From: Escherichia coli
GTDB lineage: Bacteria > Pseudomonadota > Gammaproteobacteria > Enterobacterales > Enterobacteriaceae
Length of the DNA stretch: 64,000 bases
Assembly (NCBI RefSeq): GCF_048403405.1
Contig: NZ_CP183129.1
Strand: one strand, 5' to 3'
The stretch's first letter is position 1; each line of letters starts with the position of its first letter. The translations under genes were made by a program, and so were the position numbers. The notes under the pieces are model-generated. The model was not told the DNA's origin. It searched no databases and saw nothing but the letters and a program-made list of their open reading frames with translations. This document shows positions 13,851-33,127 of this stretch, one piece after another.

Positions 13851-13887
13851 CAGTAGCATGCTAAATTTATAAAAAGGAGAAGTATTT

Positions 13888-14181
13888 ATGGTCCCTGGAT
13901 ATGTATACATATTAATCAACACAAGCATGCCTGGTTTAATTAAAATAGGTCGAACGCTACGCGACTCACGCATGCGTGCGCGTGAACTCTTCTCCACCGG
14001 AGTGCCAACACCGTTTCAAGTTGCTTTTGAGCTGTTCGCTGAACAACATGAAGCTCTCGAGGCTACGGTACATAATGAATTGAATGATTTTCGAGCTAAT
14101 GTGGCACGCGAGTTTTTCCGCTACCCACTCGACAAGGCCGTTGCATTACTAATTCAGCTGCCCCCTCCAAAACGCCACTGA
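13888..14181 (+). CDS. T5orf172 / GIY-YIG-like (MUG113-type) domain protein (97 aa)
   Basis: GYVYILINTSMPGLIKIGRTLRDSRMRARELFSTGVPTPFQVAFELF...HNELNDFRANVAREFF is the T5orf172 domain pattern. AGGAG lies 8-9 nt upstream. The ORF may be the 5' half of a frameshifted longer gene. Confidence 0.7.
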   Translation: MVPGYVYILINTSMPGLIKIGRTLRDSRMRARELFSTGVPTPFQVAFELFAEQHEALEATVHNELNDFRANVAREFFRYPLDKAVALLIQLPPPKRH

Positions 14182-14586: not shown

Positions 14587-15800
14587 TGTCCAGTTTGGGT
14601 GTAAATATCACGCATAATCGTGCCATTCATATTTAGAGATCATCCGGCATAATCAATCTGCCAACGAAGGAGATCGCTACGCGTAAAGCCCGTTTTACTG
14701 AGCATCAGATCATCGCTGTGATTAAGTCAGTTGAAGCCGGACGAACCGTTAAAAATGTCTGCCGGGAGGCCGGTATCTCTGAAGCCACCTACTACAACAG
14801 GAAGTCCAGATACGGCGGCATGGAAACTTCTGATATTAAAATCTTGAGGACGAAAACCGCCGTCTCAAACAGATGTTTGCTGACCTGAGTCTGGAGAGCC
14901 GAGCGCTGAAAGACGTTATCGAAAAAAAGCTTTAAAACCAGCCTTTAAGCGTGAGCTGGTCACTCATCTGATAACGACATTCGGACTCAGTATCAGTCAG
15001 GCCTGCCGGAGTCTGAACCTGAGCATAACGTTTACCGTTACCGCCCGGATACCACGCGTGATGAACCCGTTATTGCCGCCCTGTAGGCTGCGGCTGAGCG
15101 ATACCCACGATACGGCTTTCCGAAGCTTTTCCAGATTCTGCGACGGCAAGGATACTCGTGGAATCACAAAAGGCTCCACCGTATTTACTGTCTGCTGAAG
15201 CTGAATTTTCGCCGTAAGGGCCAGCAACGGCTGCCGGTACGCATCCCTCACCACTGGCTACGCCAGAAGCGCTGAACCAGTGATGGTCTGTCGATTTCAT
15301 GCATGATGCGCTGGCCTGTGGCCGTCATTTTCGCACGTTCAATGTTATTGATGACTTTAATCGTGAGGCGTTATCGATTGAAATCGATCTGAATCTGCCA
15401 TCTCTGCGGGTGGTCCGTGTACTTGACAGGATCGCGGCAAACCGCGCTTATCCGGTCATGCTGCGCATGGATAATGGTCCGGAATTTATCTCTCTGGCGC
15501 TGGCTGAATGGGCAGAGATACACGCAGTAAAACTGGAGTTCATCCAGCCGGGTAAGCCGACGCAGAACGCTTTCATTGAGCGTTTTAACAGGATATACCG
15601 TACAGAAATACTCGATTTTTATCTGTTCAGAACGCTGAATGAAGTACGGGAAATTACGGAGAAATGGTAATCAGAATATAACTGTGAACGCCCGCATGAA
15701 TCACTGAACAATATGACACCGGAGGAATACCGACTTCACAATTATTTGGCCGGGATCTCAAAAAATGCATGGAACTAAAACGGGTCTATTTACAGGGCCA
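14587..15800 (+). mobile_element. Decayed IS3-family insertion sequence (orfA/orfB remnants); boundaries approximate
   Basis: An orfA-like segment (KARFTEHQIIAVIKSVEAGRTVKNVCREAGISEATYYN) has no ATG and is then frameshifted. The orfB-like DDE/rve core is spread over more than one frame (AERYPRYGF...HKRLHRIYCLLKLNFRRKG...). There is an in-frame TGA at 15281-15283, then FMHDALACGRHFRTFNVIDDFNREALSIEIDLNLP...PGKPTQNAFIERFNRIYRTEIL, then ...ERPHESLNNMTPEEY after another break. Terminal inverted repeats not confidently found. Confidence 0.75.
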
Positions 15801-16057
15801 TCAGTTAGAAAATGTGGCGTACAACGATAAACAGTTTGGTTGCATAAAAAAACGTAAGAGTTGGTTATCATTCTTTCAACGTAAGGGAATTACAGTAGCG
15901 GTAGGAAAAACTGATAGGTTATTTTACATTGAATTCAAAAAACTGTTTATTTAAGCCGTTAGCGATAAGTTTCATTGTAATTTAGCCGGAAAATGTTCCA
16001 TTGGGAAAACTGAATTGAGACTAATATTATATTAGATGAGAATATTTCTGATGTAAA

Positions 16058-16089
16058 TATACCGAGGAATGGAGGCATCCCTCGGTATA
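16058..16089 (-). terminator. Hairpin immediately downstream of brxL
   Basis: tataccgagg-(11 nt)-cctcggtata, 10-bp stem, 3 nt after the brxL stop. An AT-rich tract follows on the transcribed strand. Confidence 0.4.
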
Positions 16090-16091
16090 TG

Positions 16092-18167
16092 TTAATTCAC
16101 ACCCAGCGCCTTATAAACCGCATCAACCGGGTCTGAGTAAAAACTCACCTGAAACTTGGTAAATAACTCTGCCGGAACCGTTGGAATATCCATAGCCGAG
16201 GACATCGGCAACAGAACCCGTTTTGCGCCGCTGTCGAAGGCGAGCTGTAAACTGGCGGCAAGATCCTGCACCGGGTTAATTACTCCACCAAGGGTCATAC
16301 TGCCCAACACCACCATCTGTTCCTGCACCGGCTTTGCCAGCAATATCGAACATAAAGCGATAAGCGCAGCAAGACTGGTTGCGGTGCTAGGGCCAGTATT
16401 ATGCAGTTCAACGACATGAAGGTGATATTCATGATCAGAGAATTTCGCTGCCGCGCTTACCCGATTCAAATTGCCTTTGAAGTAATCGAAACCGACGCGG
16501 ATAGCTTCTTTCGCGGAGGTATTTGAACCCAGGCCCGATACACTATGCTTACCATTACCGGCAGTCATCTGCGTTTCAAAACGATACAGCCCGGTCATAC
16601 CGCTTTCTGCCTGAGTGACCAAATGCACAACGCCCGGCTTTGGCATTCCGGCAGGAATTAGTTCGCTGCCGCCCTGTTCCGGTACGCTTACAAAAAACTC
16701 TTCCAGCGTTTCGTTATCGATGTAGCTAAAGTTCACATCGAAGAACTCCAGGCCGCCCAGTTTTTTAAGTTGCTCTTTCACTCGACGACGAACTTCCATC
16801 GCATAGGTCAGGCAGACTCGTACATCTTCTTTGCTGTACGCGCCATCGGGATGCATGAGTTTTAACAACCCCGACACTGTACGTCGAACAGCAATCACGT
16901 CACGCTGATTGAGGTTATTTCCCAGCTTGAAGAATTTATCAATTGCATCGGAGAAGCTACGTTTACGCATCTCGCGCATGTATTCAGCGAGATAATCCGT
17001 AATCAAACCATAGCGATTGGTGAAAAATTCCGGGCGCATCTTAGGAATTTCCCAACCAGGAATATAGGCATGGAAGCGGTCAAAAAATGCAGTATCAATC
17101 ATCGCATCCGGGAACGGTGCTAGCAGATGGCTGGTTTTGACCAGTGTATCTACGCTCTGATTGATGTTGCCAACAAACACCATGGAGGCTTTGCCTTCAA
17201 TGGAGTCCCGACCACGAGAGAATGAGCCTGATGCCATGTAATCCTTCATGATCTGCACGCCATCTTTGTCTTTGAAGGTGATCCCTGCCACTTCATCAAA
17301 CGCGACGACGTCCCACATTCCCACAAGACCAATCTGCCGGCTGGCCATGTTGTAAAACAAGTTCGCCACCGTGGTTTGCCCGCCAGATACCAGCAGGGAG
17401 TTAGGAGAGCACTCTTTATAAACATGACTCTTACCTGTACCACGTGGACCAAGCTCGCAGACGTTATAGTTGTTTTCCACAAAGGGAATCATGCGAGTAA
17501 TCAGATGCCACTTGGTACGCTGCTCAATATTTGCAGGTTCCATCCCGACCGAACGTAACAGCACATCAATCCACTGGTCGCGATCAAACTGCTTGCGGGC
17601 TTCAAATACCTCGTCCATATCCATATTTGGCATCTGGATCGGCTTCAGTGTGAACAGCGAGAAAGGAGACGTTTTTTGCCCCTCTTCATAAAAGTAGTTC
17701 ACGGTGATCATGCACCAGATGCCACCAGTCAGCAGTTTCTCGTTGTCTTTCACCATCTGCGACGGCACCAGGGCATCTTTAATGCCAAGGTTAGAGAGCT
17801 GGGCTTCGTAAACGTCTTTCTTCTGATTTAGCTTTACCGTGACCTTATCGATAATCTTGTAAGAACCACGCTCGCGAATTAGTGATTTCACTTTTTCTGC
17901 TTCATCCGGGCGGACGTAGTTATCAGAAAGAATACGCTTAACCGACTGTAGCCCCTGCTCGACAACCTCATCGTCATCGGAGGCACAGTACATACCGAGT
18001 AGATATTCCAGTACGTAAACCGGAACATTCGCCCCTTCTTTAAGTTGCTTAGTCAGATCCTTACGCACCACGCGACCGCGAAAGTGCTGATTCAACAATG
18101 AATCCAGGTCCTGAGCCAACACAGAGGCCGTTTCCATGTTACTGGCTGAGTTATCCTGCTGTTGCAT
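16092..18167 (-). CDS. brxL: BREX protein BrxL (Lon-like protease/AAA+ domain)
   Basis: 691 aa. Walker A GPRGTGKSH and a C-terminal Lon-protease-like region. It is the last gene of the canonical type 1 BREX order. Confidence 0.9.
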   Translation of the reverse strand: MQQQDNSASNMETASVLAQDLDSLLNQHFRGRVVRKDLTKQLKEGANVPVYVLEYLLGMYCASDDDEVVEQGLQSVKRILSDNYVRPDEAEKVKSLIRERGSYKIIDKVTVKLNQKKDVYEAQLSNLGIKDALVPSQMVKDNEKLLTGGIWCMITVNYFYEEGQKTSPFSLFTLKPIQMPNMDMDEVFEARKQFDRDQWIDVLLRSVGMEPANIEQRTKWHLITRMIPFVENNYNVCELGPRGTGKSHVYKECSPNSLLVSGGQTTVANLFYNMASRQIGLVGMWDVVAFDEVAGITFKDKDGVQIMKDYMASGSFSRGRDSIEGKASMVFVGNINQSVDTLVKTSHLLAPFPDAMIDTAFFDRFHAYIPGWEIPKMRPEFFTNRYGLITDYLAEYMREMRKRSFSDAIDKFFKLGNNLNQRDVIAVRRTVSGLLKLMHPDGAYSKEDVRVCLTYAMEVRRRVKEQLKKLGGLEFFDVNFSYIDNETLEEFFVSVPEQGGSELIPAGMPKPGVVHLVTQAESGMTGLYRFETQMTAGNGKHSVSGLGSNTSAKEAIRVGFDYFKGNLNRVSAAAKFSDHEYHLHVVELHNTGPSTATSLAALIALCSILLAKPVQEQMVVLGSMTLGGVINPVQDLAASLQLAFDSGAKRVLLPMSSAMDIPTVPAELFTKFQVSFYSDPVDAVYKALGVN

Positions 18168-18177
18168 AACGCCTCAC

Positions 18178-20775
18178 TTAAAAGAAGTCATCCTGAAATG
18201 CCAGGTCGATCGTGATCGGGTAGCGACCATACTCTGTTGCGCTGTCCGCATTCTCCAGGATAAGAACATACTTGTTTTTACGATTGAATGCCGTCCCCAT
18301 GAGTTTCATGGTTACATCGCGGGTGCGTTTACCCATATCTTCGTTATCACTGTCGAAGCATACTGTTTCCGTGCCGGAGACGACCTGGTTGTTTTCATCG
18401 ACGATAAAGATATTCAGCGTGCGCGGCTCATTTAAATCATTCACTGCCGAAGTCTGAATAAAACCAATTTTATCAATGCTGTTAACCAGTTTGATCACCT
18501 GATCCCGCGCAACGACGGGCACGGGCTGCCGCTGGGGTTGCTTCTCAGCCGCTTTCTTTTCAAGCGCGCGAATCTTCAACACAGGAACACACACTTCCTG
18601 CAGCATGGCTCCGCCATGAACGAAACGAGCACCCCCTACGAAGTGGAAACGCTGTACTCCTTTGGGTAACAGGAATTCACTTTCATCGCTTGCGCCTGCA
18701 GTATCAGCCAGTTTGCCGTGCCAGCAAAATTCACTTTCAGGCAGTTGATGGCCTACAATAAAACGCTTATTCGCTTCAATCGTGTCTTTGGCTTTACTTT
18801 CCAGCTTCGTTTTATCCTGCTCCACCAGCGCTTGTTGTTGGAACAGGAAGCCGTGATCGGCGGTAACAAAAATTCGGCTGGCATTAAATCGGCTACGCAG
18901 GCGTGAAACCAGATCTTTTAGCTCAGTGATTGCACTTCGGCAGGCCTCAAACGTTTTATCTTCCGTTGCAGCCTTATCACCCATGGCATCTATAGTGTCG
19001 TGCCAGATATAAACTACGGAAGCGTTGCGGATTTGCTCGTTCACTTCCTGGTTATTGGCGTTCTGCAAGTCCTTTGCTTTCAGCGCTACACCATTCACCT
19101 TCGCAAGAATAGCGGCTCTTTTTTCAAACCCGGAAGTGGACATCCCATCGGCGTATACTACACCAGAATTATCAGGAAGATAGCTCAACGACTCATGAGG
19201 CAACAGTGCGGCCATGCCCAGTTGGGTATAGCTTGGGAGCACTCCGGTCTGGGAGCGCAGCTCTGCACTGAAGTGCTTCTCATAGTTGATATGCCTGCCC
19301 AGCTCTTCCGCCACTTCGTAGCGCAATGCATCCGAGATCACGACAAAAACACGTTTGACCTGCGAGGTGTCAAACTGACGTTTAACATTCTCTTTATAGA
19401 AATTGCGCTGCAGGGGTATGCCGCTAAACTGCCAGGCCTGCATACGGTTTTCCGCTTCCAGCAGTTTGTTCCAGCCGCGACTTAGTTCAGTCAGATACCA
19501 ATTGCTGTATAACTCTTCGATGAATTTATCCAGTTCATGCAGGATCATCGCCCCTTTGCTGTGCACTGGTGCAGCATATTCATTGAACAAACGATAGGTC
19601 TGATCGAAGCGATAAATTTCGTCACAATAGGCCTTCCAGAACGCACCTGTATCGGGGAAATTAAACCCGTCGGTGTAACGGTTACGCAAATTCAGCAAGC
19701 GTTCTGCCTGACGAATAGCATTCCAGATAGAAAGATACTCTGGGCGGGTTTGGCTCCAGTATTTCGCACTGCGCTCTGAAACCAACGCTTTAAACGCATC
19801 TCTGTCCAGAGTGGTGCTCTCTTCCTGCAACTGTGTCACCAGACCACGGATAATAAGTTGCTCAATAGCCTCGAAGGTTTCACATTTTGCCAGTGTATAT
19901 GGTGAGCTGTAGTTGTAGTGTTCTTTTGGCTGGAGCGTCTGCTGCAAATCCTCTGCACAGTAATCGTATTCTACTTTATAGCGACGATCGTTGCGCCACG
20001 CCCCCATAAAGGCCAGTGACGAGGCCCGACCAGCCGCGGTAGCCAGCACATTTTTACTCAACCAGTCACGATGTGCTTCATCACCCTGCGCCCAGAGATC
20101 GGTACAGAACAGTTTCAGAAGCAGATTTTCCATTGAAGGAGATTCAGACTGGTATCCCAACTCAAGGCGAAGAATTTCCCAAAGTACCTCATCCAGGCCA
20201 AGCTTCGTCAGTACGGCGAAAGTGTTCTCGAGTGCGCTATCATCTTGCTGCCGTGCTGCGACAAACTGCTGAACCAAAGCAAATAGTATTTCTTTGGTTT
20301 CGAAGGTACTGGCCCCGACCACCACCGCCAGCATTTTCTTATCGAGAGAGTTTTCCGTTTCGCGCTCGGTGACCCATCCCTTCAGGATCTGAGTTCGCTT
20401 AACGGTAAAGAAGGCTTTGCGAAGCTGAATATGTTCGCGTAAACCGAGTTGCGGGATACCCAGAGAATTCAGGGTGATCGCCGCATAATCAGCGTGGAAT
20501 TCGGTACTATAGAGGCGGATATCCAGCAACCAGTCCTGCTCGCGAGCAGGAACCTCACAGGTGAAATAGAGTAAAAATTTCTGCTCAGGCTCGTCGATTT
20601 CGAGTCGTTTTTTTGTTGCGAGCACAGAAACGCCACGCATATCCAGCAGCGTGACATTGTCGAGATCCAGCTCATTAATTGAATCAGTGAAGCGTTGTTC
20701 CGGGTCGTGCCAGAAGACGATACGGTTGTCGGTAAACTTCTGACGAAGCCCTGATTCCAGTTCTTTAAATTGCAT
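18178..20775 (-). CDS. pglZ: BREX protein PglZ (alkaline-phosphatase-superfamily)
   Basis: 865 aa. The N-terminus (FTDNRIVFWHDPEQRF) and the central PglZ-type region (VVISDALRYE...TADHGF) are visible. It sits between the embedded pair and brxL. Confidence 0.9.
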   Translation of the reverse strand: MQFKELESGLRQKFTDNRIVFWHDPEQRFTDSINELDLDNVTLLDMRGVSVLATKKRLEIDEPEQKFLLYFTCEVPAREQDWLLDIRLYSTEFHADYAAITLNSLGIPQLGLREHIQLRKAFFTVKRTQILKGWVTERETENSLDKKMLAVVVGASTFETKEILFALVQQFVAARQQDDSALENTFAVLTKLGLDEVLWEILRLELGYQSESPSMENLLLKLFCTDLWAQGDEAHRDWLSKNVLATAAGRASSLAFMGAWRNDRRYKVEYDYCAEDLQQTLQPKEHYNYSSPYTLAKCETFEAIEQLIIRGLVTQLQEESTTLDRDAFKALVSERSAKYWSQTRPEYLSIWNAIRQAERLLNLRNRYTDGFNFPDTGAFWKAYCDEIYRFDQTYRLFNEYAAPVHSKGAMILHELDKFIEELYSNWYLTELSRGWNKLLEAENRMQAWQFSGIPLQRNFYKENVKRQFDTSQVKRVFVVISDALRYEVAEELGRHINYEKHFSAELRSQTGVLPSYTQLGMAALLPHESLSYLPDNSGVVYADGMSTSGFEKRAAILAKVNGVALKAKDLQNANNQEVNEQIRNASVVYIWHDTIDAMGDKAATEDKTFEACRSAITELKDLVSRLRSRFNASRIFVTADHGFLFQQQALVEQDKTKLESKAKDTIEANKRFIVGHQLPESEFCWHGKLADTAGASDESEFLLPKGVQRFHFVGGARFVHGGAMLQEVCVPVLKIRALEKKAAEKQPQRQPVPVVARDQVIKLVNSIDKIGFIQTSAVNDLNEPRTLNIFIVDENNQVVSGTETVCFDSDNEDMGKRTRDVTMKLMGTAFNRKNKYVLILENADSATEYGRYPITIDLAFQDDFF

Positions 20776-21344
20776 TATTGATTCTCAAACCATTCGACCA
20801 GTTCATGAGCGCTAGGGCAAGCAGGGTGTCTGGCAGAACTCTGAATATCAAAACCGTGATGCGTTACCATTCTCCTGGCAAATGCGGTTTTAGAACTTCC
20901 CGGTCCCTGTTTTCCTAGCTCGCGTGAAATTACTTTTAAACGATCCCATGGCATTTCAGTTGTAGCTTCAGGTAACTCTTCATTAAATGTGTCTACTTTA
21001 AGCCATTTTTTCATTGCCTCTGAATCGGCAAGAAACCAAGCCTCAACTGCTTTGACTGCGATAAACGAGATGTCGACATCTTGATGGGCAATTCGGGCCC
21101 GTACATCAGCAACAGATGCCGCATCTTCCAGGTCGGTCAGAATACAGATCCGTTCAGCACCTACATTTCTGAGCCTAGCAACGAAATTATCAACATACTT
21201 CGGTAACAGGTTACCACCACCTTTGGCATCAATAACGGGAGTTACCAATTCAAAATTATTCGTGCGCAGAAATGCAATGAACGCTGGTGAATTCACGATG
21301 ATTGACTCAGTATCACCTTCAACGATAAAACCTATTTTTACCAT
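20775..21344 (-). CDS. Small TOPRIM-like protein (DUF4276/DUF4435/RloB class), partner of the upstream ATPase
   Basis: 189 aa. Candidate TOPRIM residues are visible: IGFIVEGDTE (conserved Glu) and ICILTDLED (DxD-like). The start overlaps the ATPase stop (ATGGTAA) and the stop overlaps the pglZ start (TAATG). Confidence 0.6.
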   Translation of the reverse strand: MVKIGFIVEGDTESIIVNSPAFIAFLRTNNFELVTPVIDAKGGGNLLPKYVDNFVARLRNVGAERICILTDLEDAASVADVRARIAHQDVDISFIAVKAVEAWFLADSEAMKKWLKVDTFNEELPEATTEMPWDRLKVISRELGKQGPGSSKTAFARRMVTHHGFDIQSSARHPACPSAHELVEWFENQ

Positions 21345-22459
21345 GGCAAACCGCCATCAAACATATTCATCAGCCACGCGGTATCCAGTGGGATTTCCTT
21401 TTTATCAACCCCCGCATCTGAAGCATGCATCAGCTGAGTTTTCCCCTCTTTTTTACTAACAAACCACAGTTCGTCTGGTTCCAGATTGCGAACAATAGAT
21501 TCACTATGGGTAGTAATAACAATTGGATGATTCAAAGAGGCATTTTCACGCATCAATTGCACAAGTTCCCCAATGGCTTTTGGGTGAATACCGCGTTCAG
21601 GCTCTTCAATAATGGTCATCCCCGTTTGCTGTGCTCGACTCAAGATGGCCGTCATAATACAAAGCGTGAAGATGGTGCCGTCAGAGATAAGATGGGCAGG
21701 AAAGCGGGCACGAGTTCCCTGTTCTTTAAAGGTCAATACCGTTGAGCCATCCAATTTTTGTTTCTCGGTCGATACATTTTCCATCCCCGGAACGATGAGT
21801 TCCATCCACTCCAGTATTTGCTCTTTAAATTCGCTATTCGATTCGAGAGCAGCAAGCACAGAAGCAATGTTTCGACCATGACTGTCCAGAAATGTCGAGT
21901 CAGTTTTGGCGCTATCGGGCTCTTTAGCACGTAACGGATCGATGCGAAAAACAACAATATTGGTCAAAAAAGCGTACAGTTCACTTTTCCCCAGTAGCAT
22001 TAGTGCCGTCATATCTGACGAGTAGTTAGGGATTAAAGTCGCAGGGATTTCATCACTATCGCTCAGGCGAATCATAAGAGTATCAGGGTGCTTACGATCA
22101 ATATAAATATCTCCATCAATGACCAACTTTTCAGTGATTGTTGGTTTTTTATCCATGTTTTTGATCGTCAAGTCATAGGTAAACTGTTTTCCTCCCAGCT
22201 CAATTTGAAGGTGCAGTGAAGCCGTAGTCCGATTTTCCTTACGCAGCTTGTAGCAATGAATCTGCTGAAAACCGCCAAAATCACGGATTGCTTGTGTCGC
22301 CCCGGTTTTCACTACGGCACCAAAAAAAGCCAATGCATCGGTAATGTTACTTTTGCCCGCACCATTGGCTCCAGCAAAGGTGATAAATGGTGGGCTTTCC
22401 ACAAGGGAAAGCTCCGCGATGCTCTTGTAGCCTTTAATAATCAGGGGATGTTGATCCAT
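21338..22459 (-). CDS. ABC-type (AAA_15/AAA_21-like, OLD/RloA/AriA-class) ATPase
   Basis: 373 aa. Walker A GANGAGKSN, an SDG signature-like motif, Walker B MTIIEEPERGIHP and His-loop VITTHS. The start overlaps the pglX stop (TAATG). Confidence 0.8.
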   Translation of the reverse strand: MDQHPLIIKGYKSIAELSLVESPPFITFAGANGAGKSNITDALAFFGAVVKTGATQAIRDFGGFQQIHCYKLRKENRTTASLHLQIELGGKQFTYDLTIKNMDKKPTITEKLVIDGDIYIDRKHPDTLMIRLSDSDEIPATLIPNYSSDMTALMLLGKSELYAFLTNIVVFRIDPLRAKEPDSAKTDSTFLDSHGRNIASVLAALESNSEFKEQILEWMELIVPGMENVSTEKQKLDGSTVLTFKEQGTRARFPAHLISDGTIFTLCIMTAILSRAQQTGMTIIEEPERGIHPKAIGELVQLMRENASLNHPIVITTHSESIVRNLEPDELWFVSKKEGKTQLMHASDAGVDKKEIPLDTAWLMNMFDGGLPW

Positions 22460-25400
22460 TATGCCTCCTGTGGCGCACTGCCGGTGATCGCCTTGACATC
22501 CGCCAGCAGATCGCCAAATTTGCCGTAGTTAACCTTAACGCCGTCATCCAGATCAATAGTGATACGTCTATCAGCATAGTGACGCAAGCGATCGTCAAAA
22601 TTGCGCAGCTCGTTGAATTTTTTAGTCAACCCATCCAGCTCTTTTTTCAGGCGTGTGGTGGCAGCGCCCGATTCTGCATTTTTAAGCTGATCGTTAACAA
22701 GATCGATATTTCCCTGGTAGCGTGCCAGCAGCGGAACTACATATTCGGTACGCATACGTGACAATGTGCCTTCATTATAACGGTGCAGATACACCAGGCA
22801 CTCAAACGCCTTCTCTTTACCTGAGCTGAATAGCCAGTAAATTGGGCGCTTCTTGTACATCTTCATATGATCTTTCCAGAACTGGGTGGAAAGATAGCGA
22901 CGGATGGTATCCAGCGAAGACTCGCCTTTTTTCGGCTTGATTGCGTACAAGCAGAGGCTTTCGGCGATGAAATCGAGGTTTTCTTGTAAATGTTCTTCGC
23001 CCCAGACTGTGCGAACGAACTCTTTAACGCGGGAGGTAACATCGTCATCGAACCAGTCAGAATCCATTAATGGCAGGATACCATCTTCATCGGCAGGGAA
23101 GGTTTGGTAGGCGCCTTCATCTACTAATTCAGAAAAGCCTTTGTTACCTTCGTGGGCGTAGACCAAGCCTTCGCGATCAAGGGAATAGCGGCCCATCATG
23201 CAGCCAATAGCCAGGCTAAGTGAGTTTATAACCTGAATCGCCTTAAATTGGTTATATTCATCTTTTGAAATTGAGCTTAATGACTGGAAAACATTATTTT
23301 CCAATGTTATTTCTGCCAAGGCAAGATTGTTTTCGTTTAAAATATTGCATTTTTCATAAAATATTTTGTTATTATCACATTCTAGCTCATGTGTTTTGAT
23401 TAACTTTTGATAAAAAACTTCAGTCTGGTTTTTTAATATGTTTACTAGGCTGCCGTTTTGAAACGCATCCTGATTGAAGGAAAACTGATAACTATTTTCC
23501 TGCTGACTCCAATTTTCTTTAGCCAGAGAAATTAGTTCAGCAGTGTTCAAGGATAGGCTCTCAATCATTTTCTCATCAAAAAATGCTGGTAATTTACTTA
23601 TATCCCCCGGTTGATAATTTAATGTTGGAGAGATAGCCTTTATTAAAGAGATAATAATATCACTATTAATAAATGCTAACACAGGCAGGTAAAGGTCTTC
23701 ATTATTAACAAATAACGAAGACCCTGCATTGTCAAATAATGAGGACTCTGAGACTCTTGCAGATGTCTTGCTTGAGGAAAGAGCGTTCCATGTAATCCCT
23801 TTTTTAAATATAAAATCTAAATTATAGTTATGCGAACGTACCTTTCCTGATTTTTCATCGGTAAAATTTTGAATTTCCCGACCATCGTCGAACCAATTTA
23901 CGACATAATCAAGATTACCGTACCACTTTCTATATTCACCACCTTTCTGATAAGGGAACCATTTCAGACCGGATTTTTTAGCTTGAATACGATCAGTAAA
24001 ATCAAAACCGATATTCGCGAAATTAACTTCATGCCAAAAACGTAAAAAACGCTCATTATCCGCTGTTGCCATTCCAAGGCGTGTTGAGGCAATTTGAGAT
24101 ATTTTTTTATTATCAAATAAATTAACCTCACTTTCGCTGAGCCAATACGCAATCGGTGCACCGGGGATTTTTTGGAAGTCATCGGCAGCGGCAGTCTTTA
24201 AACGATCGTTTTTAACCGGAAATTCTTTTGGATATCCTTCATCATTGATATCGTCATTCTCAGTATAAGAGAATGCCCCTTGATAAGAAGGAATGTGAAC
24301 ATTTCTAAACACTGTTGCATTGGTACCAAAGGCAATTTTCATAACGCCATTGCCCATATGTACCATCGTCTCAATAGTGTATTTATCCAATATATTCGCA
24401 CGCATATTTTCATAGCTAGACAAAAACATCCATGATTGCATAGTCACCATTGAGTTGTACGCAGCATCTTTGAGCCAGGAAAAACCCCGCTCAATAAACA
24501 TCGCAAACAAATCTGACTTACTGTCCGGGAATTGTTTCTTAGCGAACTCTTTCAGTTCACCGTTCATCCCTTTCCCACCCATATACGGCGGGTTCGCCAC
24601 AACCGCATCGTAACGCTGCGCCAAAATCCACGCCTGCTGAATATACGGAATCAGCTCTGCTGCCGCTTCTTTCTGCGGGATATCACCCTCGACAGCCAGA
24701 CGATATAGTCCACCCAGGAATGTCTTCAGCGCCGTTTCATCTTCCTGCGGCACCTGAATCAGTGATCCCAGCGTTTTTGCACTAGTGAACAAAGCCAGAG
24801 TACGCATCAGTAGCTTATATTCCGCGCTGTCGGTATTGGCCAGTGACGTCCCTTGGGTAAACATATCTCCCATGCTGCCGCGTTGCGCCTGCTGATGAAA
24901 GTTCAGCTTGGTCCACAGTTCAGCGATATCCAGTTTACTTTCCTGCAGCGAAACGATATTCAGGCGAACGCCACGGCCCAGAATACGACGATCGTCCTGA
25001 CGGGCAAGCATCAGCATCGCAAAACCGGAAAGCTGCGCCGCACGGTCATCAATATCTAGGCCGAAAATATTGTTTTCCAGAATCAGCTGCGGAATGTCAC
25101 GGGTACGGTAGCCACGCTCTTCGTAAATGGCCTTCAGCACGTTATAGGCTTCGGTCAGGATATGCCCGGAGCCGCAGGCCGGGTCCAGCACCTTAATACT
25201 TTCTGGTTCAATGCTTGATGGGGTAATAGCCGCCAGCTGTGCCTGCACTTCCGGCGTTTGTTCCGCTGGCTCAATGTAGTACGGCATTTTGCCTTTCAGG
25301 CTGGAGTCCGGATAGGTTTGCAGCCACTGGCGGCCCACCGAGTTCTGCACCAGATACTGCACAATCCAGTTCGGAGTAAACAGCTGGGTAGCGGCAGGAA

Positions 25401-26112
25401 TATCTTCGCTCTTCACCACCTTGCCGATCACATCATCTTTTTTCTCGGAAATATAAAACTGATACAACCAGCCGATCACTTCGACCTGTTTCCAGTCTTC
25501 TTCAGGAATCGTGTCCACCAGCCCGCGCAGAATAGAGTCGGTGCGAGTCAGGTTATCCGGCAATACCAGTTCGATATCATCATTGACTGCTTCGAACAGG
25601 AAAGGCATAGCGCCGTGCAGCGCATGGCACTGTGCAAGCAATAGTTCACGGTACAGCTCTTCGTCACGATCGCCCGCCAGCTTCATCTCCACCAGGCGTG
25701 ATTTGTCCAGCCCAAGTGCATCAGCCACTTCCGGCACATGATCCAGAACCTCAAAACTCCCTTCCAGGGTCGGGTGAGACAGCATACGGAAACCGTGATC
25801 AAGATAGCCATGCAGCTCCATATAGCGAATAGCGCAAAAGCGGTTAAACCAGGTGTAAGCGATGTGCTCCACCAGCACGTCATAGCCCTGCTTTTCTGCA
25901 CGCTTGACCAGACGTTCACGGCGTGAAGCCAGTGATTTATCCAGCGAGAACTGACCATATCGCACACTGTCGCCAAGATCGGTTGCTTGCGCTATTTGCA
26001 GGTTGCCTTTTTTATCGGCGTCAATACCCAGCGTGGTCAGTTTTTGCATGACCGCATCGCGGAACTGTTTACGTGCCACCGGGGCGTATTTTTTGATATT
26101 TGACGTATTCAT
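22459..26112 (-). CDS. pglX: BREX N6-adenine DNA methyltransferase PglX
   Basis: 1217 aa. SAM-binding VLDPACGSGHIL and catalytic VVANPPYMG motifs are visible. Canonical position after brxC. Confidence 0.9.
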   Translation of the reverse strand: MNTSNIKKYAPVARKQFRDAVMQKLTTLGIDADKKGNLQIAQATDLGDSVRYGQFSLDKSLASRRERLVKRAEKQGYDVLVEHIAYTWFNRFCAIRYMELHGYLDHGFRMLSHPTLEGSFEVLDHVPEVADALGLDKSRLVEMKLAGDRDEELYRELLLAQCHALHGAMPFLFEAVNDDIELVLPDNLTRTDSILRGLVDTIPEEDWKQVEVIGWLYQFYISEKKDDVIGKVVKSEDIPAATQLFTPNWIVQYLVQNSVGRQWLQTYPDSSLKGKMPYYIEPAEQTPEVQAQLAAITPSSIEPESIKVLDPACGSGHILTEAYNVLKAIYEERGYRTRDIPQLILENNIFGLDIDDRAAQLSGFAMLMLARQDDRRILGRGVRLNIVSLQESKLDIAELWTKLNFHQQAQRGSMGDMFTQGTSLANTDSAEYKLLMRTLALFTSAKTLGSLIQVPQEDETALKTFLGGLYRLAVEGDIPQKEAAAELIPYIQQAWILAQRYDAVVANPPYMGGKGMNGELKEFAKKQFPDSKSDLFAMFIERGFSWLKDAAYNSMVTMQSWMFLSSYENMRANILDKYTIETMVHMGNGVMKIAFGTNATVFRNVHIPSYQGAFSYTENDDINDEGYPKEFPVKNDRLKTAAADDFQKIPGAPIAYWLSESEVNLFDNKKISQIASTRLGMATADNERFLRFWHEVNFANIGFDFTDRIQAKKSGLKWFPYQKGGEYRKWYGNLDYVVNWFDDGREIQNFTDEKSGKVRSHNYNLDFIFKKGITWNALSSSKTSARVSESSLFDNAGSSLFVNNEDLYLPVLAFINSDIIISLIKAISPTLNYQPGDISKLPAFFDEKMIESLSLNTAELISLAKENWSQQENSYQFSFNQDAFQNGSLVNILKNQTEVFYQKLIKTHELECDNNKIFYEKCNILNENNLALAEITLENNVFQSLSSISKDEYNQFKAIQVINSLSLAIGCMMGRYSLDREGLVYAHEGNKGFSELVDEGAYQTFPADEDGILPLMDSDWFDDDVTSRVKEFVRTVWGEEHLQENLDFIAESLCLYAIKPKKGESSLDTIRRYLSTQFWKDHMKMYKKRPIYWLFSSGKEKAFECLVYLHRYNEGTLSRMRTEYVVPLLARYQGNIDLVNDQLKNAESGAATTRLKKELDGLTKKFNELRNFDDRLRHYADRRITIDLDDGVKVNYGKFGDLLADVKAITGSAPQEA

Positions 26113-26127
26113 ATGAAGTCCTGAAAA

Positions 26128-26146
26128 GGGCAGACAATGTCTGCCC
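26128..26146 (-). promoter_or_regulatory. Stem-loop in the 48-nt brxC-pglX spacer
   Basis: gggcagac-aat-gtctgccc (8-bp stem). On the mRNA strand it is followed by UUUUCAGG and then the pglX start region. It could be a weak attenuator or an RNA-stability/processing element. Confidence 0.35.
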
Positions 26147-26160
26147 TGAAAATGGGGAAA

Positions 26161-29100
26161 TTACTGAAGCTGTACGCGTTCACCTGCGTTAATGGCATCC
26201 ATTAGCGTTTTACGGAGTTGTTCCAGCGCTTTGTCTACCTGTTCGGCGTTATCCAGCGTTGTCACACCCGCCGCTCGTTCCATCGTTTTACGCGTGTTTA
26301 CGTAGATGGTTTTTTTCAGCTTGGGTTCAGGCTTAACTACGGGGTCGATAATCCCAGGCTGAGGAGCAGGTTTTGGATCAGACACTTTCTTACGCTGATC
26401 CTCAACCCAGCCGTTCAGCCGTTCATTCGCTTTAAATTGTAGCGCTCGAACCTCAGCCTGTTCTTCCATAATCTGTGGGATCAGGCCGTTCTGCTCCACT
26501 TTCTTACGCGATTGTTGCATCGGGTGTAAAAGCGAGTGTTGCAAGTCAGCAGGGACGTGCATCTCCTGCATGCTTTGCTTAAGTTCATTGATATGACCAT
26601 CGATCTGTAGCAGCGCATGGCTTCGATATTCTTCGACCAGACGCTGGTTGATGGTTTCAACGGTTTCAATCAGCGGGATAATCCGATGCAGTTCTCCATA
26701 AGGTCGTGCCTTGCTGTAGATCCCTTCCAGTTCCTGTAACGCCTTTTGGGCCGTTTCGTCTTTATCCAGCGCGTTACGGTTAGCTTTAAAACTGCCATTC
26801 AACGCCATACTCAAGCGCTGCCAGGTAGCGTATTGGTTTTTGTAGAAGCTAACCAAATCGTCCCAGTCTTCCGAGAAATCTTTAAGATCGTCAGCCGCTG
26901 CGGTGATTTTTTCAATGACCGCGTATTCCTCTTTCTCGTTAAGGATCCCGTTCAGCAATACCAGACCTTCTTCTATCTCTTTACGGCCAGGGTTTTGTCC
27001 ACTCTCTGCACGAGTTTTAAAAACAGTCAACTCGCTATTCCAGCGGCCAAAGAGTTCGCGAATATGAGAGACCAACGACTGTTCTTCACGCTCGTTAAAC
27101 GGCTCTCCAGCAATCTCTGCCATCAGCTGCGCAGCTTTAGTCAACTGTGCTTCATCATGGCGACGAACTTTATGCAGACGCAAATCGCTGTAACGACGTG
27201 AATTATTAAACGCGTCCCACGCCTGCTTCAGTGCGATTTCACTGCCTTGCAGAGTGAAGCTGTATTTACCGCTGCGTGCCAGCCGAGCAACCAGCAATTT
27301 GACTTCATCTTCCGGCCAGCCAAACGGGCGACGGCCAAAAGTGGTGAGAATATCCCGCAGGTAAACTGGCTTATGAGTCTCAATACTCATGCTGATCCAG
27401 TTATCCACTTCACGCATCGCCTCTGGGTTGGATTCTTCCATACCCCCGAGATCGAGCTGGGTATCATTTTCTACTGTCAACAGCGCGTGAGTTTCACGAT
27501 TTACGTCTCCGGTACTAAGACGCAGCAATTTTAGTTTAGAGAAACTGTTCTCGATAACGTAACCGCAGGCTGCATCCACGATAGCTAACGGCGAAGAGGA
27601 TTTCTTATCCAGCCGTTCGCCCAGCGCCCAGACATCAGCTTGAGCCAGCAAGCCTTCAATCTGCGCCTTAAGCGTTTTTTCACGCATACTATTTTCACGG
27701 CCTTTTTCCGCCAACAGCGTTGCCTGTTCCGGGCGCTGGCCGCTTTGCTTGCTGAGGAAAGCTTTGGTCTGAGCGTACATGGTCAGGTCTTGCCAGGTAC
27801 GAGCCTCATCAGGCAGGCAAATTAAGATGCAGTCTTTACTGTCCGTCATCAGCAGACTATTAGAATGCGCACCCTTATAGCTCTCGTAGTTCGAGTCCAG
27901 TGGCGTGAGCACTTTAACCACCAGATCGTTAAGATTCGCACCATCCAGCGGATGTCCGTTACAAAAACGACTGATATCAAAATCCTGCTTATTGGCCGGA
28001 TAGCGATATCTTTTGTTTTTCAGGATCTCTTCGAAAATGATGGTTGAGAGTTGCTTATTGATGGTGGTGAATTCCACGTCAATATTGCGGATTTCGTTTT
28101 CAATCTCTTTTTCTTCGTTAGTGAGAAAAACAAATTTGTCATCAATACGCGAGATCAGCATCTCAGCCTGCAGACGATTAAGGCTGGCTTCAATCTGTCG
28201 ACGGAGTTCCACTTTATCAGTATCAATACGCTCAATAGAGAGCGTGACGAGATTGTCGAGAGTACTTTTCAGCACATCGACGTAGCGGATCAGGAACAGT
28301 GTCTTTAGTAGTTTGCCGTCAAATTCAGTCAGTGACGGAGACTGGCAGGCCTGAATAATAGTGCGGCTAACTGCAGGTTCCAGGAAGCTTTCAATCGCTG
28401 AATAGAAGCGCCAGAACGGGACCAGACTATCCAGACCATCTGCGGAGATTTGCACAGCAGCCGACTGGAAGGCATCTAGCAAAGAGCGCTCCCCCATTGC
28501 CAGCTGCTTACCTGCGGCCCCTTTAGTACGGATTGATTCAAAGACTTTTTGCAGGATCTGGTAATGCCACGGTACAAACGGATAGTTATCCACGAACTCG
28601 CGGCTGTTTGTATAGGCTCGCAGAGTAGCGGTCGTTGTCGTGTCAAACGCCAACTGGTTACGCAGAATATCGCCTTTTTCCTGCCAGATAGCTTCCAGCG
28701 CCGGTATTGCCGCATCGGTTTTTACCAGCAGACGTTTCTGGATAACTTCTGAAGTATTCGAGCTGGAGAGTTGTAAGCGCGTTGAGAAACGTCCCTGAAT
28801 CTTGGAGAAGTCCTGACCATCACGACTGCTCATACCGCCAATAGCAGCATTAATGTCAGCCTGGGAGGTAACTATCACCCATGCCCGCCCACCACAAATA
28901 ACGCCCAAGTTTTCGGTGATAGTTTGCAGCTTGAGCATCATCTGAGCATCTTTACCAATGAACTGACCAACTTCATCGACCATAAACAGGATATTGCGAT
29001 TACCATGGCTGTCGAGCCACTCTTTCACCCACGTACAGAAATTTTTGATATCCAATGGGAAGTTCTTATCAAGTTGCTCGATCCATTGACGAGAAGACTC

Positions 29101-29775
29101 TTCACTCTGGCCTGTAGCAATACTCAGTGCCTGAGCCATCTGATCGTTTATCATCAGATAAACATCACGTTCGTCTTCCCAGCGAGACCCTGTAATGTCC
29201 GCGAAGGCTGCCCTAAAGGTATCAAATTGTCCACGCTTATCGAGCTCACGTTCCAGATGTGCAATATGTGGGAAGTCGCCACAATAACCAGCTAGTTCGT
29301 TAAAGACTTTCAGAAAGACTTTGAGTATGGCATCAACGCCATCTTCAACATTCGCACGTGAGTCAATATTGAATAATATGACATCGGTCGGATGTTGTAC
29401 CGATTTCCGAATATCAGCCAATAGCAGTGCATCATCAATTTTCTCTTCAAAGAAGGAAAGTGCATTACGAGTGACACCATTATGGCTTACTTCGCGGTTC
29501 GCCAGTAGATAGGATAAGATCTTAATGAAGTGTGATTTACCCGAACCAAAGAAGCCTGAAACCCAGACGCCTATTTTGTCAGCAAGCTGTAATCTGCCAG
29601 GGCCAGTAGCAGGGGCATATACTTCAAAGAACTGACGCAGGTGACCATCCAGCTCTCTGGTAATGACATACTCATCCAGTTCTATCCAGGCGCTTTCGTC
29701 GTCGGTCTGCTCGGCTTTAACCACGCCGTTAATATTACGTTTTAGCTGTTTCTCAAAAATTTGTTCAATATTCAT
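26161..29775 (-). CDS. brxC: BREX ATPase BrxC/PglY
   Basis: 1204 aa. P-loop GFFGSGKSHFIK near the N-terminus and Walker B-like ILFMVDEVGQ. Canonical position. Confidence 0.9.
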   Translation of the reverse strand: MNIEQIFEKQLKRNINGVVKAEQTDDESAWIELDEYVITRELDGHLRQFFEVYAPATGPGRLQLADKIGVWVSGFFGSGKSHFIKILSYLLANREVSHNGVTRNALSFFEEKIDDALLLADIRKSVQHPTDVILFNIDSRANVEDGVDAILKVFLKVFNELAGYCGDFPHIAHLERELDKRGQFDTFRAAFADITGSRWEDERDVYLMINDQMAQALSIATGQSEESSRQWIEQLDKNFPLDIKNFCTWVKEWLDSHGNRNILFMVDEVGQFIGKDAQMMLKLQTITENLGVICGGRAWVIVTSQADINAAIGGMSSRDGQDFSKIQGRFSTRLQLSSSNTSEVIQKRLLVKTDAAIPALEAIWQEKGDILRNQLAFDTTTTATLRAYTNSREFVDNYPFVPWHYQILQKVFESIRTKGAAGKQLAMGERSLLDAFQSAAVQISADGLDSLVPFWRFYSAIESFLEPAVSRTIIQACQSPSLTEFDGKLLKTLFLIRYVDVLKSTLDNLVTLSIERIDTDKVELRRQIEASLNRLQAEMLISRIDDKFVFLTNEEKEIENEIRNIDVEFTTINKQLSTIIFEEILKNKRYRYPANKQDFDISRFCNGHPLDGANLNDLVVKVLTPLDSNYESYKGAHSNSLLMTDSKDCILICLPDEARTWQDLTMYAQTKAFLSKQSGQRPEQATLLAEKGRENSMREKTLKAQIEGLLAQADVWALGERLDKKSSSPLAIVDAACGYVIENSFSKLKLLRLSTGDVNRETHALLTVENDTQLDLGGMEESNPEAMREVDNWISMSIETHKPVYLRDILTTFGRRPFGWPEDEVKLLVARLARSGKYSFTLQGSEIALKQAWDAFNNSRRYSDLRLHKVRRHDEAQLTKAAQLMAEIAGEPFNEREEQSLVSHIRELFGRWNSELTVFKTRAESGQNPGRKEIEEGLVLLNGILNEKEEYAVIEKITAAADDLKDFSEDWDDLVSFYKNQYATWQRLSMALNGSFKANRNALDKDETAQKALQELEGIYSKARPYGELHRIIPLIETVETINQRLVEEYRSHALLQIDGHINELKQSMQEMHVPADLQHSLLHPMQQSRKKVEQNGLIPQIMEEQAEVRALQFKANERLNGWVEDQRKKVSDPKPAPQPGIIDPVVKPEPKLKKTIYVNTRKTMERAAGVTTLDNAEQVDKALEQLRKTLMDAINAGERVQLQ

Positions 29776-29787
29776 TGCTGTCGTCTT

Positions 29788-30390
29788 TTAACGAGGAGTC
29801 AAAGTCGCCGCCGGTCTGGTTTCTGGTACCAGTCTGAAGGCGCGGTAATAGTTACGAGAATTAATGCCAGCGAGTGGAGAAAGATCGTATCCGCTATAGG
29901 TGCCTGGATAGAACATCAGCAATGGTGTAAATCCCATCACGTCCTGAAGTGCGCTCATTAGCTCATGACCACGAACCAACGGCCAGGCGTTACCAAGTCC
30001 CGTCAGAATGACAAATTGCTGCGCAGGAAGATCGACCGTGCGTGCAATATATTCCGCGATTTTTTTCTGGCTTAGCGGGGCAGCCAGATGCTTTTTCAGT
30101 GTCTCAAGGCCAAGCTCAGGCTCTCGTTGGCAGATACGTTCAAAGAGCTTACGTTCTTCCAACATATCGATGATAATCTGGAAGATATTTAGCGTTTTAT
30201 AGGTGTACTTTTTATCCAGTTTTTTGAATAAAAAGTGCAAGTACTCGCGGACCTGAAGCTCTTGTTTTGCCGGATAATCAAAGATCCAGAAGCCAATCTC
30301 ATTGCCGGAACCTTGGTTTTTCAAAAAACGGTCGTCGCCGATACGTTCTTCTAACTGTTTTAATCGGTATTCAAGGATCGGGTCATTCAT
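29788..30390 (-). CDS. brxB: BREX protein BrxB (DUF1788)
   Basis: 200 aa. Size and position between brxA and brxC fit. The start overlaps the brxA stop (4 nt). Confidence 0.8.
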   Translation of the reverse strand: MNDPILEYRLKQLEERIGDDRFLKNQGSGNEIGFWIFDYPAKQELQVREYLHFLFKKLDKKYTYKTLNIFQIIIDMLEERKLFERICQREPELGLETLKKHLAAPLSQKKIAEYIARTVDLPAQQFVILTGLGNAWPLVRGHELMSALQDVMGFTPLLMFYPGTYSGYDLSPLAGINSRNYYRAFRLVPETRPAATLTPR

Positions 30391-31007
30391 GCGTTACCCT
30401 CCAGAATAGGGAGCAGTTCGGCTTTGTTTAAACGATGCAAGGCCGCTGCAACAACTGGTAGCAGGAAAACGTTTTGTAAATTGCGGCGGCGTGGGCTATC
30501 CAGGTAACCAGCTTCTGCGAGAGCCTTAATAAGATTGTTACCCATCTTTTGGATCGATGAATCAGAAAAAGCTGCCAGTTCCGGGTGTAAACGGAGATTC
30601 TCATCCACAAACTCACTCCAACAATTTATACCAAGCTTTTCTTTAAACTGCTGACGAGCTGGATTTACAACTTCAGCAATAAACGTCGCAACAACTGGAG
30701 ACTGGATCATCAACGCAACCAACAACATTTGCAGACGCTCGCTTTCACTGCCATCAGCAATCAGTTGCCAGCACTCCCGATCCAGGGTCATCAATCGCAG
30801 CCTTAAGGTTCGGGCATAACGATTTGCCGTACTCGTGGAGGACGCCTGAAGAATATTTTCATTGATTATTTGCTGCTGCCAGGTTGTTTCATCTGGTTCA
30901 GAGAGCAACAGCTCAGCAATGGTTCGGCTCTCACGAACCATCAACGAACCACCCAGCAGATCGCCAATCCAGCGTTTGTCATTTTTTGTCATGGTATTTA
31001 TCATCAA
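30387..31007 (-). CDS. brxA: BREX protein BrxA (DUF1819)
   Basis: 206-aa ORF, first gene of the operon. The true start may be the internal MTKNDKRW (30990), and no strong RBS is seen at either candidate. Confidence 0.75.
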   Translation of the reverse strand: MMINTMTKNDKRWIGDLLGGSLMVRESRTIAELLLSEPDETTWQQQIINENILQASSTSTANRYARTLRLRLMTLDRECWQLIADGSESERLQMLLVALMIQSPVVATFIAEVVNPARQQFKEKLGINCWSEFVDENLRLHPELAAFSDSSIQKMGNNLIKALAEAGYLDSPRRRNLQNVFLLPVVAAALHRLNKAELLPILEGNA

Positions 31008-31530
31008 AAATCCGGAATGCTGCTCGCAAAAATCAAGTAATGATTGTAATCGGCATGCAAGATAGATGCTATGACTATGGTCAGCTCAATATACGTTCAT
31101 AGTACGAGTACAGTTATAAAAATGGGAGGGTTAACCAGTTCCGGTATCTTTTCCTACACAAACATATACTTGAGATCGTGCCCGCATCGTGGACAATGTT
31201 TAACCATGATGATTTTATATCAACGAAATCAATAGTTTTATTTGAGTTACGGGACGGGGAATGGACAGCAATACTCAAGAATTTACTTCATGCTGGCGAA
31301 TACCTTAGCTGATGCCGAGTCTGGAAAATGTAATGATGTGATGGACGACCTTTCCTGAAGCAGACAGTGCCATACTTTTACTGTCTGCGTTTGCTAAGGG
31401 AGTAAATCACATCACTACAAATAGTCCTTCTGTGTCAGCTTTTACGCCGAATGCTAAGCTCCTCTTTAGGGGGCGATCTTATGATTCCGGTGGCATTAGC
31501 TGGAATAAAAAAGAATTTATTGAGCCGGTT

Positions 31531-31553
31531 GCTCTTCCCCCCAGGGGAAGAGC
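31531..31553 (-). terminator. Hairpin downstream of the integrase remnant
   Basis: gctcttcccc-cca-ggggaagagc, 10-bp stem, about 20 nt after the integrase stop. There is no adjacent U-run. Confidence 0.3.
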
Positions 31554-31574
31554 ATGTGTGTGAATAGCGTTCTG

Positions 31575-32845: not shown

Positions 32846-33005
32846 GGTCTTCCTTCCATTGGTATCTCGTGAGTATACAAGCAATATCGAATCGGCAAAT
32901 ATGCTTATTAGTATACTCACAAGCCTGTTGATGTGGGTTGAGTCAGGTTGACTTCAGTTGAGGAGAAAAGCTGGAAAAGCCTTGCGTGGTGCGGATTTCA
33001 GGCAT

Positions 33006-33029
33006 AAAAAAAGACCTCAGTTGAGGTCT
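33006..33029 (-). terminator. leuX rho-independent terminator
   Basis: On the minus strand: agacctcaactgaggtct followed by a U-run (plus-strand A-run 33006-33011). It lies 14 nt downstream of the tRNA 3' end. Confidence 0.7.
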
Positions 33030-33042
33030 ATTTACATACTTT

Positions 33043-33127
33043 TGGTGCCGAAGGCCGGACTCGAACCGGCACGTATTTCTACGGTTGATTTTGAATCAAC
33101 TGCGTCTACCGATTTCGCCACTTCGGC
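33043..33127 (-). tRNA. leuX: tRNA-Leu (anticodon CAA)
   Basis: The reverse complement reads GCCGAAGTGGCGAAATCGGTAGACGCAGTTGATTCAAAATCAACCGTAGAAATACGTGCCGGTTCGAGTCCGGCCTTCGGCACCA. It has a cloverleaf with a long variable arm, a CAA anticodon in the loop TTCAAAA and an encoded CCA. Confidence 0.95.

Follow-up and report, generated by a model that had tools for sequence, protein, structure and literature searches.

The subject of this report is a bacteriophage exclusion (BREX) defence locus of Escherichia coli, found in a 64,000-nucleotide stretch of contig NZ_CP183129.1 that is here called the window. The locus is very probably a single eight-gene operon on the minus strand, in which a type 1 BREX system carries an embedded mobile module, an ABC ATPase paired with a TOPRIM protein, of the kind called HEC-01 (Hma-embedded candidate 01), and which is situated in the leuX island. 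Between positions 16092 and 31007, eight consecutive open reading frames (ORFs) follow one another in the order brxA-brxB-brxC-pglX-[ABC ATPase-TOPRIM/DUF4276]-pglZ-brxL. The embedded two-gene cassette is the sole non-canonical feature of the BREX locus.

The eight-gene operon and its embedded cassette

All six core proteins of a type 1 BREX system are encoded in the same orientation and in the canonical order, despite the insertion of two genes between pglX and pglZ. The matches to the PADLOC and Pfam profiles extend over the full length of the proteins (Table 1), and no ORF of the operon contains an internal stop. An earlier note on this DNA had described a complete type 1 BREX operon consisting of six intact genes in canonical order. 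The completeness, the type and the order of these genes are borne out. The content of six genes is not, since ORFs 21338-22459 and 20775-21344 lie within the coordinates then claimed for the operon and were overlooked. The motifs to which the note had pointed were all located. BrxC has a Walker A motif, GFFGSGKS, at residue 74 and a Walker B motif, LFMVDE, at residue 263. PglX has NPPY at residue 507 and the S-adenosylmethionine-binding motif DPACGSGH at residue 310, and it aligns over its full length with the solved structures of E. coli HS BrxX and Salmonella PglX in a PDB sequence search. The AAA+ and Lon-like regions of BrxL are present, with a Walker A motif, GPRGTGKS, at residue 240. The annotation made by PGAP in RefSeq already names brxC, pglX, pglZ and brxL.

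The two embedded genes are tightly joined to their neighbours. The junction between pglX and the ATPase gene is an overlapping TAATG behind an AGGAGG ribosome-binding site, the ATPase and TOPRIM genes overlap by 7 nt (ATGGTAA), and the TOPRIM gene is followed by pglZ through another stop-start overlap, TAATG. The ABC ATPase matches PADLOC HEC-01A over the whole profile (1-371/371, E 1.2e-181), as the smaller protein does HEC-01B (1-188/188, E 5.2e-100).

The ATPase has a Walker A motif, GANGAGKS, at residue 30, and its IIEEPE and TTHS motifs are invariant across the family. The folds nearest to its AlphaFold2 model (predicted local distance difference test score, pLDDT, of 85) are the heads of PtuA from Septu and retrons and those of Rad50 and SMC. 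The TOPRIM protein and its homologues belong to DUF4276 (PF14103), and a fold search places it nearest to OLD, GajA and AriB. Its conserved acidic residues E9, E13, D71, E73, E101 and D107 would fit a TOPRIM metal site, in agreement with Payne et al. (bioRxiv 10.1101/2024.01.29.577857). PDB sequence searches with both cassette proteins returned generic ABC matches or nothing.

The C-terminus of the ATPase (21338-21385) ends in GGLPW, a sequence without variation in 41 homologues (52-89% identity) and preceded by a D that hardly varies. This tail is disordered in the AlphaFold model (pLDDT <50). The TOPRIM partner may dock onto it as a peptide, although the conservation could in part be due instead to the overlapping start of the next gene.

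A further element of the operon is a hairpin in the spacer between brxC and pglX. It has a 9-bp stem and a minimum free energy of -17.8 kcal/mol (z -3.2), and is kept in the BREX loci of Yersinia ruckeri and E. coli HS, the latter showing a two-sided change in the stem. The hairpin could be an attenuator or an element affecting mRNA stability.

Among the closest known systems is the BREX of E. coli HS, whose six genes are the same and are identically ordered. The identities are 68% for BrxA, 73% for BrxB, 69% for BrxC, 67% for PglX, 66% for PglZ and 97% for BrxL, the last over the tblastn match. Where the present locus has two genes between pglX and pglZ, E. coli HS has a 176-bp non-coding spacer. 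The two systems also differ in location, that of E. coli HS being at thrW (PMC9009780) and the present one at leuX, and in their integrases.

Distribution of the cassette and divergence of PglX

One genome per species was scanned for relatives of the ATPase, giving 80 loci. In nearly all of those that extend far enough, a DUF4276 gene directly follows the ATPase gene. A tree of the ATPase was constructed from 86 homologous loci, including some fetched by protein look-up, together with the copy in the window. The cassette is embedded between pglX and pglZ in 23 of the 86 loci, in 37 no BREX gene occurs within 5-10 kb, the sequence covered being at least 5 kb to either side, and the contigs of the remaining 26 are too short to tell. 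BREX-embedded copies occur in Y. ruckeri, Pseudoalteromonas, Ectothiorhodospira, several Burkholderiales, Pseudomonas aeruginosa and Providencia/Proteus. The stand-alone copies lie beside polA or two-component genes, in integrative or mobile elements, or beside a type I restriction-modification methylase gene. One stand-alone homologue is that of Pseudomonas vanderleydeniana (L083).

In the tree, copies of the two kinds are intermixed, and the sister of the P. aeruginosa BREX copy, for instance, is a P. coronafaciens copy that stands alone. The cassette is thus a self-contained, mobile unit of two genes, which has on several occasions been inserted at the pglX-pglZ junction. Of 5426 complete E. 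coli genomes, 26 have the cassette (20 on a chromosome, 6 on a plasmid), in every case with pglX and pglZ as its neighbours. A type-A pglZ was detectable in 399 genomes.

The pglX-pglZ junction also gathers other defence genes. The order at the P. aeruginosa locus is BrxR-brxABC-pglX-[pair]-[TIR protein]-pglZ-brxL, with the TIR-domain gene following the cassette at 11785-12774 of loci L085/L086. The Providencia/Proteus locus adjoins a traI gene of the integrative and conjugative element type and has the order brxABC-[GmrSD-type gene]-pglX-[pair]-pglZ-brxL. The additional gene of this locus, located between brxC and pglX (L090/L091, 4572-6335), encodes a BrxU-like protein with a GmrSD_N domain.

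Upon comparison with the Y. ruckeri copy, the ratio of non-synonymous to synonymous substitution rates (dN/dS) was found to be 0.19 for pglX and 0.02-0.05 for the remaining BREX genes. The values for the ATPase and TOPRIM genes are 0.07 and 0.08, respectively, and those of the cassette genes overall range from 0.07 to 0.11 (0.07-0.09 for the ATPase gene). Both cassette genes are under purifying selection.

The unit formed by the integrase gene, the spacer, the BREX operon and the remnant of an IS3-family insertion sequence is present also on large E. coli plasmids. S30 plasmid C (L088, 3600-21765, corresponding to window 14673-32842) has the integrase gene, the spacer, the eight-gene BREX operon and the IS3 remnant, and its integrase is an intact protein of 422 aa. 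Relative to this plasmid, brxA, brxB and brxL have zero non-synonymous changes and at most a trace of synonymous ones. By contrast, pglX and the cassette have diverged, as has brxC in its 3' part; the synonymous divergence (dS) of 0.09-0.56 indicates a recombined block.

The divergence of PglX is concentrated in its target-recognition domain, at about residues 540-970. In the alignment with E. coli HS PglX the N- and C-terminal parts are near-identical, and the middle part is rich in gaps and poorly aligned. The target-recognition domain is unrelated to that of E. coli HS, which recognises GGTAAG, and plasmid-borne PglX proteins are at most 58% identical in this region. Prediction of the methylation motif by similarity of this domain to E. 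coli HS and to plasmid-borne PglX proteins gave no motif. No specific motif can thus be predicted, since the domain is unlike that of E. coli HS and of all the plasmid-borne PglX proteins that were searched.

Table 1. Positions of the operon genes and of associated features in the window
Feature	Position	Strand	Remarks
brxL, Lon-like ATPase	16092-18167	-	691 aa; PADLOC BrxL 1169 bits, 5-680/680; Pfam BrxL_N, BrxL_ATPase, Lon_C
pglZ	18178-20775	-	865 aa; PADLOC PglZ 1065 bits, 1-855/855; Pfam PF08665
DUF4276/TOPRIM protein, embedded	20775-21344	-	189 aa; PADLOC HEC-01B
ABC ATPase, embedded	21338-22459	-	373 aa; AAA_21/AAA_15; PADLOC HEC-01A
pglX, N6-adenine methyltransferase and specificity subunit	22459-26112	-	1217 aa; PADLOC PglX 1486 bits, 1-1171/1174
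RNA hairpin	26127-26147	-	In 48-nt brxC-pglX spacer; GGGCAGACA-UUG-UGUCUGCCC, then UUUU
brxC, P-loop ATPase	26161-29775	-	1204 aa; PADLOC BrxC 1444 bits, 1-1190/1190
brxB	29788-30390	-	200 aa; start overlaps brxA stop (ATGA); PADLOC BrxB E 4.8e-67, 5-192/193; Pfam PF08747
brxA	30387-30992	-	201 aa from ATG 30992; PADLOC BrxA E 1.8e-94, residues 2-199/200; Pfam PF08849
Leader of BREX module, probable promoter region	30993-31085	-	About 93 bp; invariant TACAAT
Island-specific non-coding spacer, integrase to BREX leader	31086-31574	.	489 bp
P4-type tyrosine integrase pseudogene	31575-32842	-	Pfam Phage_integrase on remaining ORF
tRNA-Leu(CAA) leuX	33043-33127	-	Island attachment site; ARAGORN and Rfam
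HTH-WYL (helix-turn-helix) protein	10685-11368	-	227 aa; 4.7 kb beyond brxL, in a separate gene module

The upstream region and the leuX island

The mechanically delimited brxA ORF reaches a TTG at 31007, which the earlier note had taken as the start. The ATG at 30992 is the more likely start; it is used by RefSeq and is conserved in the alignment of homologues. The non-coding gap between brxA and the integrase gene is then 582 bp long rather than 566 bp. That no gene lies in this gap holds good, as no mechanical ORF in 30993-31574 exceeds 54 aa, and scanning the entire window with Rfam revealed no family in or upstream of the BREX operon.

The leader is the sole upstream stretch shared with the Y. 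ruckeri BREX locus, where the identity is 90% over 186 bp including the start of brxA. It is conserved also in E. coli HS, which shares the last 61 bp. This conservation suggests that 30993-31085 probably acts as the promoter region of brxA. A sigma-54-like reading of the leader (TAGCAT-N5-TTGCA) was dropped because the -12 element is not kept in E. coli HS. Within E. coli, the spacer beyond the leader is confined to the 27-29 genomes matching this segment, in eight of them on plasmids.

The integrase gene had been called dead, and this is correct. By comparison with the intact copy of S30 plasmid C its start codon has changed from ATG to ATT, and one nucleotide is deleted at codon 121. For the copy in E. 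coli MS 69-1, RefSeq notes both a frameshift and an internal stop.

The earlier note had also stressed that an adjacent BrxR-type (WYL) regulator is missing. A BrxR-regulated BREX system has a protein with winged HTH, WYL and WCX domains immediately upstream of brxA, and no such protein is encoded there. A tblastn search of the whole window with the BrxR of the P. aeruginosa BREX locus L086 gave nothing better than E 0.28, and the BrxR-specific Pfam families are absent. The HTH-WYL protein encoded beyond brxL has only sub-threshold Pfam matches to HTH_11 and WYL, and lacks WHD_BrxR and BrxR_CTD. It matches the CRISPR-associated type of WYL model in PADLOC (E 1.3e-16) and has no significant similarity to P. 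aeruginosa BrxR. Its gene is the first of a module that also contains a GTPase gene with a frameshift (9633-10645, minus strand).

The regulator is thus indeed absent, but there is little that is unusual in this. No BrxR-type gene is annotated upstream of the E. coli HS operon, BrxR has been reported not to belong to the E. coli or B. cereus systems (PMC9122589), and in Salmonella a promoter upstream of brxA gives constitutive transcription of BREX (PMC11341690). To be without BrxR is the normal state of characterised enterobacterial BREX systems.

The locus adjoins leuX, and the core genes ahr and idnK-idnR come after leuX in the RefSeq annotation. The locus therefore belongs to the variable leuX island of the E. 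coli chromosome. Region 16000-32500 has a reported identity of 100.0% to eight complete RefSeq E. coli genomes, for example MS 69-1 and TUM14771. The single difference found is a run of six against seven C residues at 31537, in a hairpin after the integrase gene. Outside this region, a second single-base homopolymer difference from MS 69-1 was observed at 38375. In MS 69-1, an IS2 copy interrupts a gene of the YagK/YfjJ family; the window has no IS2 at the corresponding site (about 7843-7849), and the MS 69-1 annotation coordinates below window position 7843 are shifted by 1336 bp as a result.

Other genes of the island include an AbiEi/AbiEii abortive-infection pair at its far end (1524-2859, minus strand; E 1.7e-53 and 1.1e-126) and, at about 3874-5902, a CbtA/YeeU toxin-antitoxin pair with radC and a DUF932 gene. 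The leuX island is thus a small defence island. The stretch from the WYL module to the IS3 remnant contains four small co-oriented genes to which no function was assigned (12037-14181, plus strand). The second matches PDC-M14A weakly, and the last encodes a 97-aa GIY-YIG/T5orf172 fragment that matches only the N-terminal half of PDC-S57, a PADLOC candidate. Directly downstream of brxL is a frameshifted transposase pseudogene of the IS3 family, inside which an Rfam match to the small RNA isrN was observed (14934-15075, minus strand, 137 bits).

Proposed function, alternatives and significance

In the proposed mechanism, the conserved stretch of about 93 bp upstream of brxA would drive constitutive transcription of the operon, as suggested by the leader and by the Salmonella precedent. 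PglX, acting with BrxA, BrxB, BrxC and PglZ, would methylate one adenine in a non-palindromic site set by its target-recognition domain, and unmethylated phage DNA would be blocked by BREX, as expected from the membership of these proteins in their families. The earlier prediction of N6-methyladenine on one strand of a 6-bp asymmetric site, with exclusion of unmodified phage, is reasonable at this family level. For the cassette, PARIS and PrrC serve as analogies: its ATPase would recognise something made by the phage, perhaps a protein directed against BREX, and would then release or activate the TOPRIM nuclease, aborting the infection. The cassette would in this way constitute a second, backup line of defence, which is the least certain part of the mechanism.

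The combination of an ABC ATPase sensor and a TOPRIM nuclease has several precedents. The same logic is found in PARIS, OLD, Gabija and the Mad3-Mad4 pair of MADS, and OLD-type ABC and TOPRIM modules have been reported as backup effectors within BREX loci (PMC12839542). In OLD and GajA the ATPase and TOPRIM domains are fused, whereas here they are encoded by two separate ORFs, and the operon has no helicase gene corresponding to GajB. DUF4276 has been reported as the fold family of Mad4 (PMC12065111). The cassette, however, has no MADS context; it shows only a mad3 match with E 1.8e-19 and no mad4 match. The closest likeness is to HEC-01, described in the preprint of Payne et al. as a candidate system made up of an ABC ATPase with a TOPRIM protein. 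The arrangement, with the ATPase followed by the small TOPRIM protein, is the same, and both profiles are matched from end to end. HEC-01 was defined from Hma-embedded copies, whereas the present copy is embedded in BREX.

Several observations weigh against the reading of the locus as BREX with an independent HEC-01 defence module. HEC-01 gave no protection against any phage assayed by Payne et al., and with the PARIS pair of Salmonella neither activity nor a response to Ocr was seen (PMC11341690). The tight translational coupling of the cassette would also be compatible with an accessory subunit of BREX instead of an independent system. Furthermore, consensus promoter and terminator scans of 15800-33200 gave site counts no higher than those in shuffled sequence and did not pick out the brxA promoter.

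The idea that the pair serves this BREX lineage as an accessory or regulatory subunit, for instance by tuning BREX or supplying a missing nuclease, is the strongest of the alternatives, though still an unlikely one. In addition to the coupling into the operon, it has in its favour that the E. coli copies are all BREX-embedded and that deletion of ariA or ariB in Salmonella shifted the BREX efficiency of plating about 10-fold (PMC11341690). It is difficult to reconcile with the close relatives that stand alone near housekeeping genes or in mobile elements devoid of BREX and are intermixed with the embedded copies in the tree, and the six-gene BREX system of E. coli HS works without such genes. 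There is still less to be said for a plain six-gene type 1 BREX operon with the missing BrxR as its sole peculiarity. The six core genes are indeed intact and ordered and BrxR is absent. Nevertheless, the ORF map and the family matches refute this description by placing two further intact genes under purifying selection between pglX and pglZ, and the absence of BrxR is normal in the characterised E. coli and Salmonella systems. Decay, with the locus being no more than a non-functional relic of a mobile island, is equally improbable. The dead integrase, the IS3 pseudogene and the frameshifted GTPase gene elsewhere in the island point in this direction, but all eight ORFs are of full length, dN/dS relative to the Y. 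ruckeri copy is 0.02-0.19, and identical copies are present in eight independent complete genomes.

A closely similar arrangement is that of the StySA BREX locus of Salmonella Typhimurium LT2 and D23580 (STM4491-4498), which also has eight genes, lies in the leuX island, lacks BrxR and carries a pair of an ATPase and a TOPRIM-class protein between pglX and pglZ (PMC9009780, PMC11341690). The Salmonella pair was annotated as an ATPase with a DUF4435 protein (PMC9009780) and has been treated as PARIS (PMC11341690). In LT2, a promoter of pglZ is reported to lie within the DUF4435 gene. The embedded pair could be imagined to be a true PARIS system (AriA/AriB), as in D23580 and LT2, triggered by Ocr-like proteins and cleaving tRNA, but the evidence makes this quite improbable. 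The ATPase has the generic AAA_21 and AAA_15 domains that an AriA-type ATPase would have. The PADLOC match to AriA (E 6e-26) coincides with the coordinates of the generic Pfam domain AAA_21, and HEC-01A outscores AriA by more than 150 orders of magnitude. The nuclease partner is a DUF4276 protein, and neither PADLOC nor Pfam gave a match to AriB or DUF4435. No AriA structure was found by PDB sequence search or among the top 50 Foldseek matches. The cassette proteins, of 373 and 189 aa, are also much smaller than AriA (55 kDa) and AriB (35 kDa) (PMC11464382). On the basis of the published domain annotation and of family scans, the partner in Salmonella is of the AriB type, whereas here it is of the HEC-01B type, and the ATPases belong to different sub-families. 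The specificity of the Salmonella PglX, GATCAG, is not shared either. The DUF4276 partner, the coincidence of the AriA match with AAA_21 and the absence of an AriA structure from the matches therefore point to a different module with the same logic in the slot that is occupied in Salmonella by PARIS.

With the cassette taken as a HEC-01 module embedded in BREX, a broader idea can be put forward tentatively, although the odds are against it. The pglX-pglZ junction might be a docking slot for interchangeable ABC-ATPase/TOPRIM guard modules, in which the DUF4276-type pair would sense anti-BREX proteins and stay silent until BREX is inhibited. The slot is occupied by DUF4435-type PARIS in Salmonella, and by DUF4276-type HEC-01 here, in Yersinia, in Pseudomonas and in the Providencia/Proteus element. 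A guard that is silent until BREX is inhibited would explain the negative results of standard plaque assays with both HEC-01 and the Salmonella pair.

The BREX genes were already named in RefSeq, and defence genes within BREX, including ABC and TOPRIM modules, have been published (bioRxiv 10.1101/2024.01.29.577857; PMC12839542). The locus is thus an ordinary, uncharacterised representative, which as a genome feature opens no new question by itself. Of modest interest is the finding that, in the same island of Salmonella and E. coli, one slot of related BREX systems is occupied by ATPase-TOPRIM modules of two different kinds. A comparison with Salmonella StySA could test whether the embedded modules guard BREX. 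If active, the cassette and BREX would together give commensal and clinical E. coli a natural defence in two layers, carried both on chromosomes and on large plasmids.

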